A stretch of 41,475 nucleotides of DNA. Origin: Shigella phage SfII. Where the stretch lies: the sequence record NC_021857.1, one strand, 5' to 3'. Position 1 is the first letter of the stretch. The number at the start of each line of letters is the position of its first letter. Shown here piece by piece: positions 27,001 through 30,000 of this stretch. The position numbers were made by a program.

Positions 27001-30000
27001 GCATGGCCCGGTACCTGTGGAATCACTTTGAACATCTCTGTTGCCGGGATACCTTCCAGTACAGGCCAGAAAGAGCCATCATCAAGCCCGAGATCGCGGC
27101 GTTCGGTTGCCAGCATAATGAGATCGGCATATTTCACTGGCGTGCTCATAACAGGAGGTAACCCGTATTTCTCACGGATTACGGCGTCTATTTTTTCTTC
27201 CATCCGTTTATAGTCAGGAAGAAGTCGTTTCAGTGGTGCGGGGATGTCCTGGCAATATGCTTCTGTTGCATCATGCATTAAAGCTTCAAAAGCAAATTCC
27301 TGCGGCACCAGCTGGCTGCAAAGCACCGCATATTGGGCGACACTGTAGAAGTGTGAAAGATGTCCTGCAAAGCGACAGATATTTGAAAGGGAAACCGCGA
27401 TATCGTTAATAACGATGTCGTCTTTATTTATCCTGTCATAATAAAAATGCTTCCCGGAAAAAGTTTTAATAAATGACATTTTGTTCTCCACGTATATGCG
27501 CTGCACCGCGCTGAATTCGGGTAAAAGGAAGCCCTCACCGTCCGGCGATTATTGAGTCAATTACATTTCCATAAATGCCCCCGTAGGGGCGGTTAGTTTC
27601 TCCACAAAACAGAGAAGAACACCTGCGGTGGCAGCCGCTCGGATGGATTGGGTTATGAGCCCGTCGTCCGGTGATGCTCTTCTCTGTTTTGTAAAAAGGA
27701 CGGTACCAGCCGGAAGCAATGGTACAAACTGGTACCGCCAGGACTACACACAGCATAAAGTTGTGGTGCCGGGTGCCTCCCGGTGCCTGGCGAAGGTTGC
27801 ACACCAGACGGGTGGGTATCCACAGAAGGTCGACTGTCAGCCTCAACCTTAACCCGCGTGCGCTGAGCCGCATTCACCACAACGCTAAGGATTCTCTTTG
27901 GTTGAAAATACTTAGCTGTTATGTGCCTGTCTTTTCACCACTTCAGGCTCGGTGGTATCTTGGTGTTTTCATATAGCCAAGAAGGAAATAGTTATGACCA
28001 AAGAAGAAAAAATTCTTTATTTATTCCAACTATCGGTTAAGACTCACACTGCATATCAGACTGCTGCCATGACATCAGATAAAAATTACAGTACGTCAGA
28101 AAACCCGATAGACGACATAAGCAAGCTTTACGATAAGTTCGAAGCACTACTCGATAAAAAGTTTGCTGAGGCTGGGCTTGAGTGATTGTTGAATAATCGA
28201 CAAAACCCAACTTAAATTTTCGTCAGTGGGCTCGATGCCATGTGCGGTGAGCTCACTTTTCAAAACTCCAAGTAATTCAGAGCTGATTTTCAATATATCT
28301 GCTTGATTTCTAACTATTCCCACTTTTTCCTCCCTTGGTCTACGCGCGGTCATGTTTTACGCCCAAACGACTTCACAGTTATTGTTTAAAATCTGGACTT
28401 TCATTTCATACACCTGCTTTAACATGAGTGCCTGGTGGCACAACATGACTCAACGAATCATCCTGGACTTCATATGCCCCAGGCGGCTACTTCGTGGGCG
28501 TCCTGCCTGTTCGTTTTTGACATTTACTGACTGCTTACGACACATGCACCGTGTTGCAACCAGATTTTGTTGTAATCCTGTAGTTGGTCTGGAACAAAAG
28601 ATAAAATTAAATTGCGAGATATGCAAGTGATATTTGCGATATATGCAAATTTATAGGTAATAAAAAGCCACCTTTCGGTGGCCGATGGATGGGATATTGA
28701 GGTTAATTATGTCTCTTAAGGGTTTGCGACTGACTGATTAAGACCTTTCCAAAGACCATGAATCGGTGTTCGTTTTCGCTAGTAATTCCCCATTCACGGT
28801 AAATCTGGTTATCAGAAATCACCAGCAGTTTGTCAGGAATCATTTGAAGTCTTTTAACATATATTTTGTCATCAAAACCAAAGACATATATACCATCACC
28901 ATCAAACTGATTGATGCTGACATCAACGAAGATGAGATCTCCTGGCTCAATGGTTGGACACATACTGTCCCCACGAACGTTGATAACTTTGATGTGATTG
29001 GCTGGTCGTCCGCCGAACATTGATACAGCATTATCAGTTCTGTATTCGATGGCATGAATCACATCAATGACATCACCGCCCTGGATAAGGCCATTTCCCG
29101 CACTTGCACTGATATCCAGCATTTCAATACGGAACACATCCTTCACCTGCGCAACATCCTCATTATTACTGTTTTTATATACAGTATTACTTTTGTGGGC
29201 AGAGGTAAAGAGATCAGCAATATCAACACCTAAGCTCTTGGCAATATTACTCAGTGTTTGTTCGGTAAATTGTTTTTGCTTACCCGTTTCTAAGCGCGAG
29301 ATGTTCGCCGCATCTACTCCTATTGCTTCAGCGAGATCGGCGATTTTCATGTTCTTCGCTTGGCGAAGTTGTCTGACTCGGTTTCCTATGTTCATGCGTT
29401 TATTACATTTCTTTATTGCGTGATAAGCAAATCAACTTGCGCAAAATAATTGCGTGAAATAACATGCATAACGCGCAATATTTGGAGGGCATATGCAATC
29501 ACCATTACGAAATGTGCGTAAGGCGCATGGTTTCACTTTGCAGCATGTTGCTGCGGGTGTTCAAGTCAATCCAGCGACGTTGAGTCGTATTGAGAGACTG
29601 GAGCAGATTCCATCTATCGAGCTTGCAGAACGATTAGCCAATTTTTTTAAGGGTGAAGTCAGCGAAATGCAGATTCTTTATCCGGCACGTTTTCAATCTA
29701 GCCAAAACCAGAATGGGTTTAAACCACAGGAACAGGAGGTGAACCGTGGGTAAGCATCACTGGAAAGTAGAAAAACAGCCTGAGTGGTACGTGAAAGCTG
29801 TCAGAAAAACTATCGCAGCGTTGCCGGGGGGGTACGCTGAAGCTGCTGACTGGCTGGATGTAACAGAGAACGCATTATTTAACCGCCTTCGTGCCGATGG
29901 CGATCAGATTTTCCCGCTGGGATGGGCAATGGTTTTACAGCGTGCTGGTGGCACTCACTTCATTGCTGATGCTGTGGCGCAGTCTGCAAATGGCGTCTTT

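Follow-up and report, generated by a model that had tools for sequence, protein, structure and literature searches.

The 41,475-nucleotide (nt) genome of Shigella phage SfII (NC_021857.1; hereafter, the window), an SfV-like temperate phage, carries a GC-rich stretch at about 27540-27990, between its cI-like repressor gene and a yfdR-like gene, that is probably a composite RNA island of an SfV-like prophage. Read from the minus strand, this island would consist of two elements that travel together: (i) E1, a structured small RNA (sRNA) that ends in an intrinsic terminator; and (ii) E2, which follows directly and is modelled as a three-way-junction RNA with a tip matching the anticodon arm of initiator tRNA. 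An E1-type 5' motif was found no more than 275 nt upstream of E2 in 104 of 186 distinct sequence contexts, against an expectation of 0.013 by chance.

The composition and folding of the stretch are as a first-pass annotation had described them. The GC fraction is 0.52-0.575 over 27500-27900, compared with 0.37-0.45 in the flanks, and folding is far beyond that of shuffled sequence: the minus strand of 27560-27960 reaches -162.3 kcal/mol (z-score z = -4.83) and the plus strand z = -3.91, none of 100 shuffles being as good in either case, and the minus strand of 27570-27700 alone gives z = -7.45 (0 of 200 shuffles as good). All three inverted repeats that had been listed were confirmed at their stated positions: GCCCC-CGTA-GGGGC at 27577-27590; a 20-nt repeat (27604-27623 with 27673-27692) enclosing about 49 nt; and GGTACCAG...CTGGTACC, which sits inside a 13-bp hairpin at 27699-27739.

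The first-pass annotation had assigned no strand; our evidence favours the minus strand, which is the direction of the leftward early promoter PL, as the functional one. U tracts follow the hairpins on this strand; E1 and E2 elements are co-directional with the flanking operon in every annotated locus inspected; and G-U pairs outnumber A-C pairs on the minus strand, both in E1 (17 vs 4) and in E2 (51 vs 29, with 23 of these 29 A-C pairs contributed by one conserved C-A position).

Of 5426 complete E. coli genomes, 3007 contain at least part of the region, 1841 (~34%) the E1 core and 2490 (~46%) E2. The view that such a stretch is unusual for a phage was thus not borne out, as the E2 module occurs in nearly half of these genomes.

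E1 and the sRNA-17, STnc100 and PasD superfamily

The features of E1 referred to below are as follows.

27883..27693, minus strand: E1, structured sRNA of ~190 nt, sRNA-17/STnc100/PasD superfamily; 5' end placed by homology to sRNA-17, which was mapped by rapid amplification of cDNA ends (RACE)
27883-27875 with 27760..27768, minus strand: closing helix, 9 bp; 5' strand GUUGUGGUG, 3' strand CACCACAAC
27783-27769, minus strand: invariant hairpin CCGGGAGGCACCCGG, directly 5' of the 3' strand of the closing helix
27740..27759, minus strand: linker UUUAUGCUGUGUGUAGUCCU between core and terminator, mostly unpaired in the predicted fold
27739-27699 and 27697-27693, minus strand: intrinsic terminator, a 13-bp hairpin followed by five uridines (U5), taken from the fold
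27933-27928 and 27910-27905, minus strand: weak sigma-70-like promoter candidate read from the sequence; -35 AAGACA, 17-nt spacer, -10 TATTTT

Judged by sequence, E1 is a new member of a known sRNA family, a second allele on the scaffold of sRNA-17 with an STnc100-like interior. sRNA-17 is encoded by an mEp460-like prophage of E. coli K1 RS218, where 5'/3' RACE and northern blotting defined a species of 193 nt (PMC7719688). It spans from GUUGUGGUGAAUGCG to the terminator GGCGGUACCAG...CUGGUACCGC-UCUUUUU, after which E2 follows (PMC7719688, supplementary alignment, and the mEp460 genome); the mEp460 copy stands in for RS218 sRNA-17 in our comparisons. E1 occupies the same strand and position, between the cI/PL region and the yfdP-yfdR genes, has nearly the same length (~191 nt), and shares with sRNA-17 the 5' GUUGUGGUGAAUGCG, the closing helix, the terminator hairpin and the adjoining E2. 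However, while the ends of the two RNAs are near-identical, their ~100-nt interiors align poorly and the linkers in front of the terminator differ. Furthermore, the mEp460 copy, unlike the E1 of the window, has no STnc100 match at E <= 0.1.

An Rfam scan had been proposed as a check. At gathering thresholds there was no match in the whole window, but a permissive scan aligned E1 (27905..27690) with the whole 206-position STnc100 model (RF02076) at 39.5 bits (E = 6.6e-7). As the gathering score of this family is 47 bits, formal Rfam membership of E1 failed. Scored with the same model, PasD1 and PasD2, two validated sRNAs of E2348/69, obtain 37.7 and 41.4 bits, respectively, a Cronobacter phage copy 40.6 bits, and a unit from the ban operon of phage P1 33.4 bits.

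PasD is associated with Hfq and has been validated by northern blot (PMC8550237), and PasD and STnc100 have been reported to share ancestry and structure (Zhu et al., 2026, preprint). The closing helix, with the CCGGGAGGCACCCGG hairpin set directly against its 3' strand, the invariant GGUGAAU and a 3' intrinsic terminator are common to E1, STnc100 and PasD, all of which are prophage-borne. They differ in location: the place of STnc100 and PasD is the late region, where Q or stx lies on one side and the lysis genes on the other (STnc100 downstream of stx2B, PasD beside DUF3927, esterase and holin genes), whereas the E1 of the window lies in the early-left operon. In addition, the PasD seed UGUGAG is absent from the linker UUUAUGCUGUGUGUAGUCCU, and the U tail of E1 is only 5 nt long.

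Compensatory base changes, another check that the first-pass annotation had suggested, support the helices of both E1 and E2. For E1, we aligned 14 representatives, including the window, ST64B, Cronobacter, P1-like elements, three STnc100 copies and PasD2. In this alignment, no changes are seen in GGUGAAU or over most of the CCGGGAGGCACCCGG hairpin; 93.9% of the helix positions are paired, compared with 34-50% when the partners are slid, and nine pairs are changed on both sides (1-3 in the slid controls). In the closing helix, five of the six outer pairs carry compensatory changes among E1, phage P1, Cronobacter, STnc100 and PasD.

The terminator of E1 aligns with that of the STnc100 model, and its hairpin also forms the 3' end of sRNA-17. 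Of the earlier suggestion that the region is a terminator cluster or encodes a small RNA, two parts stand: the hairpin at 27702-27736 is of the terminator type, with U5 on the minus strand, and the right half of the region, E1, fits a small RNA. The long inverted repeat is not a terminator and belongs to E2.

The linker sequence GCUGUGUGUAGUC (or ...GAAGUC) is kept in the E. coli, ST64B (Salmonella) and Cronobacter copies, and differs in the sRNA-17 allele. We consider the linker a candidate base-pairing seed; if it is one, the sRNA-17 and E1 alleles should have different targets. A search of the phage window for targets of the E1 linker and of the tail that follows E2 gave nothing beyond chance. 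The promoter candidate matches 8 of 12 positions, which is below the threshold of the scanner, and would start transcription ~15 nt before 27883.

E2, a three-way junction with an initiator-tRNA-like tip

E2 and the sequences that follow it comprise these features.

27692..27604, minus strand: E2, three-way-junction RNA; the minimum-free-energy fold equals the model (z = -7.45)
27692-27673 with 27623-27604, minus strand: helix P1, 20 bp
27671-27665 with 27645-27639, minus strand: helix P2, 7 bp, then an internal loop AC / AAUC
27638-27635 with 27628-27625, minus strand: helix P3, GCGG-loop-CCGC
27650..27662, minus strand: apical hairpin GGG-CUCAUAA-CCC, identical to the anticodon stem-loop of E. 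coli initiator tRNA (metZ)
27596..27603, minus strand: tail GGAGAAAC after helix P1, conserved in early-class sequences
27577..27590, strand unassigned: small GC hairpin GCCCC-CGUA-GGGGC in the leader of the yfdR-like gene

Rather than a terminator, the long inverted repeat forms the stem that closes a conserved three-way-junction RNA, one arm of which is tRNA-like. The tip of this arm, GGGCUCAUAACCC, matches the anticodon stem-loop of E. coli initiator tRNA: in an alignment with K-12 metZ, the apical 13 nt are identical, as are 17 of 19 nt when the flanks are included. The anticodon-like loop has 7 nt, U33 and a purine at position 37, is closed by a stem, and is conserved, with G-U variation at the closing pair. 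A core of ~21 nt, GACGGGCUCAUAAYCCAAUCC, is invariant or nearly so among 27 distinct P2 segments.

Because RNAalifold alone mis-predicted the interior of E2, a manual model was tested instead. Among the 28 distinct sequences of an early-class alignment (the class to which the window belongs, see below), 93% of the modelled pairs are formed, as opposed to 40-54% with slid partners, and eight pairs are changed on both sides (0-1 in the slid controls). In the set of 27 distinct P2 segments, which covers all classes, six of the seven P2 pairs covary, with variants such as CCGGACG/CAUCCGG, CCUGAUG/CAUCAGG, CUACCUG/CGGGUAG and ACGGAUG/CAUCCGU.

No Rfam family matches E2. Rfam searches of this part at E <= 10 returned only meaningless microRNA and ribozyme matches, the Rfam tRNA model did not match E2, ARAGORN called no tRNA in the window, and literature keyword searches found no description of the element; in the five E. 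coli records listed, the site is left unannotated. E2 thus looks like a new RNA element, the function of which we infer below.

Pattern scans with the core detected E2 in more than 120 viral contigs and ~25 Enterobacterales genomes. In the genome-wide scan, ~60 of 85 matches were chance occurrences in unrelated phyla, about the number expected for 17 fixed bases in 596 Gb, and matches were kept only if P2 pairing flanked the core. Two classes were distinguished. Early-class elements, including that of the window, follow a T-run or terminator in 142 of 146 distinct contexts and are themselves followed by the tail GGAGAAAC, a small hairpin and the ribosome-binding site (RBS) of the first early-left gene, which varies (YfdP/sb37-like, YfdR-like, a 305-aa protein, and others). 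The small GC hairpin of the window, flagged by a scanner as terminator-like on the plus strand only, is replaced in other variants by a different one, often with a UGCAG loop, before the RBS. Late-class elements (Klebsiella, Raoultella and others), a short-stem version with 6 bp, close tRNA arrays that are located between Q and the lysis genes; they are separated from the preceding tRNA by the 6-nt spacer GAUAAU and end in ACCA or GCCA, and ARAGORN calls the neighbouring tRNAs but not E2.

A covariance model, R1, built from early-class E2 only, scores the E2 of the window at 111.7 bits, late-class elements at 36-38 bits and Pantoea elements at 43-44 bits. It gives 40 bits to a hairpin from an Acidobacteria metagenome-assembled genome (MAG), and 38-41 bits to the antisense strand of the long hairpin alone. 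The former, in the Acidobacteriaceae MAG PMHC01000083.1 (2541-2623 of the locus compared, minus strand), is an intergenic hairpin with an identical 21-nt E2 core (GACGGGCUCAUAACCCAAUCC), enclosed by 9-bp and then 12-bp closing stems of unrelated sequence and located just upstream of an RBS. This suggests that the E2 motif may exist outside the Enterobacterales. In a Gammaproteobacteria MAG, LFRZ01000149.1 (~3650-3730 of the locus compared, plus strand), we observed a tRNA-fMet-like gene, not called by ARAGORN, that reads …UCGGGCUCAUAACCC joined to AAUCCUGCUCCCGCAACCA; it appears to be without a variable loop and T arm, and the deletion gives a CCCAAUCC junction as in E2.

Phage P1 presents a further arrangement. 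E2-like and E1-like units alternate in its C1-controlled ban operon. The R1 model detects two E2-like elements there (loops GUCAUAU and UUCAUAU), both of which keep U33-CAU-A37 and immediately precede an E1-like start, GUGGUGAAUGC; a third long-stem unit upstream has a canonical T-arm, GGGUUCGAAUCCC, at its tip. In AF234172.1, the region at ~69500-70210 contains three tandem units, each a long stem with a tRNA-arm-like tip plus an E1-like domain. They have tRNA-Asn, tRNA-Thr, tRNA-Ile2 and a dicF-like region as neighbours, and the annotated open reading frames (ORFs) plp and upl, which run antisense to them, may be spurious. In phage P1 and in Pantoea phages, a true E1-like start occupies the position of the tail GGAGAAAC of the window. 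In the fold, wobble pairing of this tail with the U tract can lengthen helix P1; its sequence recalls the GGUGAAU with which E1-type units start and resembles a decayed E1 start. Given the linkage of E2 to an upstream E1 motif, the alternation in phage P1 and this resemblance of the tail, E1 and E2 look like repeat units of tRNA-derived RNA islands.

Two other explanations of E2 were tried and rejected. It is not the attP remnant of an integrase targeting tRNA-fMet, since it contains the anticodon arm only and no tRNA 3' half, lies far from int and has covarying stems. Pairing of its loop with a downstream start codon was also dismissed, as the complementarity amounts to 3-7 nt and is not conserved across variants.

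Coding potential and genomic setting

The earlier statement that the region contains no convincing ORF holds in that no reading frame is conserved among the homologs and a Pfam search of the ORFs found no family match; it does not hold in the mechanical sense. ORFs of 112 aa (minus strand) and of 74 and 85 aa (plus strand) run over the region, and one of the plus-strand ORFs, 27628-27852, matches PHROG 3651 (E = 5.6e-49). PGAP places a frameshifted hypothetical protein at the equivalent of 27561-27880, hypothetical proteins are annotated at the region in several phage records, and E1 itself bears such an annotation in the records listed. These entries would favour a small protein gene, real or decayed and on either strand, in which the hairpins are incidental. 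Against this, indels of +1, +2, +3 and +25 nt distinguish the homologs within the ORFs; over 162 distinct contexts, the open length of the antisense ORF through the E2 core ranges from 19 to 77 codons downstream and from 8 to 136 upstream; substitutions are compensatory for RNA pairing; and the E2 core is invariant at every codon position. Between phages, moreover, this DNA is 95-99% identical, so that any spurious ORF called on it would be expected to yield a PHROG match. We therefore regard a coding function as very improbable: given the lack of Pfam matches, the indels, the variable antisense ORF and the RNA-compensatory substitutions, the PHROG 3651 and PGAP proteins over E1 and E2 appear to be annotation artefacts spread across very similar prophages.

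The surroundings of the region are organised as follows, from right to left.

29493, plus strand: cro-like gene, right of the cI-like gene
29416-29430: third TTGCG-N5-GCAA site, between cI and cro
28703-29395, minus strand: cI-like repressor gene
28683-28666, minus strand: terminator of the cI transcript, from a terminator/promoter scanner
28612..28648, minus strand: two operator-like TTGCG-N5-GCAA sites left of cI, putative leftward operator and promoter (OL/PL)
~27479, minus strand: ATG of the yfdR-like HD-domain gene, left of the E1/E2 region
24895-26058, minus strand: int, following xis and other early-left genes

The placement of the region in the path of the early-left transcript was substantiated by operator-like sites on both sides of cI. 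TTGCG-N5-GCAA has only three matches in the 41-kb window, all flanking the cI-like gene, and these look like OL and OR operators, which would place PL near 28600. Leftward minus-strand transcription from ~28600 would enter the E1/E2 region, and the putative OL/PL is its likely source; the region lies ~0.7 kb downstream of it and directly upstream of the early-left genes.

Between PL and E1 there are two small conserved phage ORFs, 27994-28185 (plus strand) and 28147-28353 (minus strand), which are convergent, overlap by 39 nt and match PHROG 2605 and PHROG 15476, respectively, both of unknown function. For the latter, the likelier start is a GUG at 28323 that follows a strong AGGGAGG Shine-Dalgarno sequence. 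This 68-aa ORF had been a candidate for an N-like antiterminator, which we rejected because the Shine-Dalgarno sequence and the GUG suggest a 58-aa product without an Arg-rich N-terminus. At 27937-27956, just upstream of the plus-strand ORF, a 6-bp hairpin (ACCACU...GGUGGU) precedes a T-rich stretch on the plus strand; its fold is no better than that of shuffled sequence (z = -1.0). In some strains, such as E. coli CX21 (NZ_CP081762.1; 1600-2370 of the locus compared), ~650 bp of extra DNA with an 81-aa plus-strand ORF lie between E1 and the plus-strand small ORF, and the spot just upstream of E1 seems to accept insertions.

On the other side, the window is without the yfdP-like and yfdQ (DUF2303) genes, unlike SfV, mEp460 and ST64B, so that E2 runs straight into yfdR; this arrangement is common to several IMG/VR contigs. 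Homology to SfV begins at 27579 of the window (in a comparison with 1225-2477 of the SfV locus), the leaders diverging a few nt past the E2 tail. The CPS-53 prophage of K-12 was excluded as a carrier, as it has yfdP-yfdR but is homologous only from the yfdP RBS onward and has neither E1 nor E2. A second copy of the E1/E2 region was sought in the window and none was found. To the right of E1/E2, at a distance of ~2.4 kb, ST64B and an Stx2c phage have Rfam matches to isrK above the gathering score (5232-5308 and 5062-5138, respectively, of the loci compared); the whole window has no isrK match at that score.

Proposed working, rival readings and known systems

In a lysogen, we suggest, the E1 terminator would make a discrete sRNA and insulate the early-left genes downstream. 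The 3' end of E1 would be set by its own terminator and its 5' end would lie at the base of the 9-bp closing helix; E2 would be transcribed only when polymerase reads through the terminator. E2 itself may best be seen as a tRNA-like punctuation module: its 20-bp stem, situated at the 3' end of E1, is a plausible RNase III substrate, by which E1 would be parted from the downstream mRNA in read-through RNA, and the short-stem RCCA form in tRNA arrays is a plausible RNase P substrate that would do the same separating job. Either cleavage would free a small tRNA-like RNA, of which the conserved CAU arm would be the functional surface. That an E1-type RNA accumulates as a terminated species, and that removal of the locus derepresses downstream genes, would carry over by analogy from the sRNA-17 literature: when sRNA-17 was deleted, the reads of yfdP rose from 0.49 to 47 and those of yfdR from 0 to 8.5 (PMC7719688). 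The sequences compared show the structures with their conservation and covariation, the strand, the contexts and the linkage of E1 to E2; the processing enzymes, and any role in trans, are what we infer.

Several considerations weigh against this scheme. The membership of E1 is to be taken at the superfamily level only, because the Rfam gathering score was missed and the interior is unlike that of sRNA-17. A promoter scan gave no site above threshold for E1, and as no convincing promoter was found, E1 may be processed from the PL transcript rather than be a primary transcript; its expression, too, is that of its homologs and would extend to this allele by analogy. The rise in yfdP reads could be an effect of how the deletion was constructed and not of the missing terminator. 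Because the sequences compared are those of related phages, shared ancestry accounts for part of the covariation signal, and weak R1 matches are credible only if they include the core sequence, because the antisense hairpin scores as high. Finally, cleavage of E2 by RNase III or RNase P is a prediction, and a pure processing signal does not explain ~21 invariant nt including the CAU loop.

Since a processing role leaves this invariance unexplained, we keep as the main rival the reading that E2 works chiefly in trans by imitating the anticodon arm of initiator tRNA, with a stem or array context that serves only to release and stabilise it. Candidate partners would be MetRS, the 30S P site together with IF3, or a VapC/MvpT-type anticodon nuclease that cuts tRNA-fMet. 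Two established facts fit a decoy: the anticodon stem-loop is where enteric VapC toxins cut initiator tRNA, and host anticodon nucleases are countered by phage tRNAs. So do the identity of the 13-nt tip with metZ (17 of 19 nt with flanks), the retention of U33-CAU-A37 even in the divergent copies of phage P1, the presence of the same core on two scaffolds (a 20-bp stem, and a 6-bp RCCA stem in tRNA arrays), and its recurrence on unrelated stems in the Acidobacteria hairpin. However, tRNA-fMet has nothing that corresponds to the internal loop AC/AAUC, which is just as invariant, and the C28-G42 pair of the tRNA is a C-A mismatch in E2; a decoy needs high abundance, whereas early-class E2 is placed after a terminator; a consistently linked partner gene was not seen; and binding or cleavage of E2 is conjectural. 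We accordingly consider a mainly trans-acting E2 rather unlikely. The same doubt attaches to its broadest form, in which E2 would be an undescribed phage RNA family, an exact mimic of the initiator-tRNA anticodon arm on a long or acceptor-like stem, released from early or late operon transcripts to act in trans as a toxin or nuclease decoy or as a modulator of translation initiation, and would form, with E1 units, tRNA-derived RNA islands in lambdoid phages and P1.

Less likely still is that the region is chiefly a transcription-control cassette, that is, a terminator cluster possibly combined with a cis-acting, put-like antiterminator RNA in E1 or E2. The terminator-type hairpin with U tract that ends E1 and the second small GC hairpin at 27577-27590 are in keeping with it, as are the near-constant location of E2 after a terminator and before a long operon, the presence of E1/STnc100-type elements also in late operons and the ban operon of phage P1, and a position just downstream of PL/OL that recalls lambda nutL/tL1 and HK022 putL (PMC9378689). 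Yet the antitermination target that the first-pass annotation had considered found no support: no lambda boxA (CGCUCUUA-like; GCTCTTWA) was present on the minus strand from 28650 to 27570, and neither E1 nor E2 has a match in the HK022 early region, where the E2 core and the R1 model were both searched for. HK022 put and E2 are alike in being structured RNAs of ~70-100 nt downstream of an early promoter in a lambdoid phage that apparently is without N/nut. Put, however, consists of two stem-loops in a V shape with no closing helix (PMC9378689), whereas E2 has such a helix, occurs in tRNA arrays, and shares with put neither sequence nor model matches. Furthermore, the terminator that E2 would need to overcome lies before it, sRNA-17 is found to accumulate in its terminated 193-nt form, and there is no reason for a polymerase-modifying RNA to reside, as late-class E2 does, inside tRNA arrays. 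The absence of boxA and of put similarity, and the location of E2 behind the terminator, led us to weight this reading below that of a mimic.

If the composite RNA island, our preferred reading, is correct, an element present in ~46% of complete E. coli genomes is without an Rfam family and unannotated in the five records listed. Reannotation would remove a spurious protein family (PHROG 3651 and the PGAP pseudogenes), and sRNA-17, STnc100 and PasD would join one structural superfamily spanning early and late phage operons. The E1 terminator would also offer a simple explanation for the silence of the early-left morons yfdP-yfdR in lysogens. Should the E2 arm act in trans, temperate phages would have a new way to interfere with processes directed by initiator tRNA, although tRNA mimicry itself is a known principle.

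On the tRNA side, the closest known systems to E2 are the tRNA genes and tRNA-like RNAs of phage operons, such as the late-region tRNAs of lambdoid phages and the ban-operon tRNAs of phage P1; in phage T4, the stable RNAs "species 1 and 2" sit at the end of the tRNA cluster. The three helices of E2 could mimic the acceptor/T and anticodon/D stacks of a tRNA, and late-class E2 has the spacing of a tRNA array and an RCCA end. Nevertheless, E2 has no D arm and no T-loop consensus, and in the window its 20-bp helix P1 is followed by GGAGAAAC and not by CCA; because of this long stem and the missing CCA, it cannot be an aminoacylated tRNA as it stands.

For the proposed punctuation role, the nearest parallels are the RNase III sites of phage early transcripts and lambda sib/tI retroregulation, where a transcript that reads through tI creates a processing site, so that terminated and antiterminated transcripts are told apart. 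In E2, as in lambda, a duplex of ~20 bp is formed only in transcripts that read through the terminator immediately upstream. E2 has no homology to sib, sib is without a conserved tRNA-like arm, and the RNase III cleavage of E2 is a prediction.

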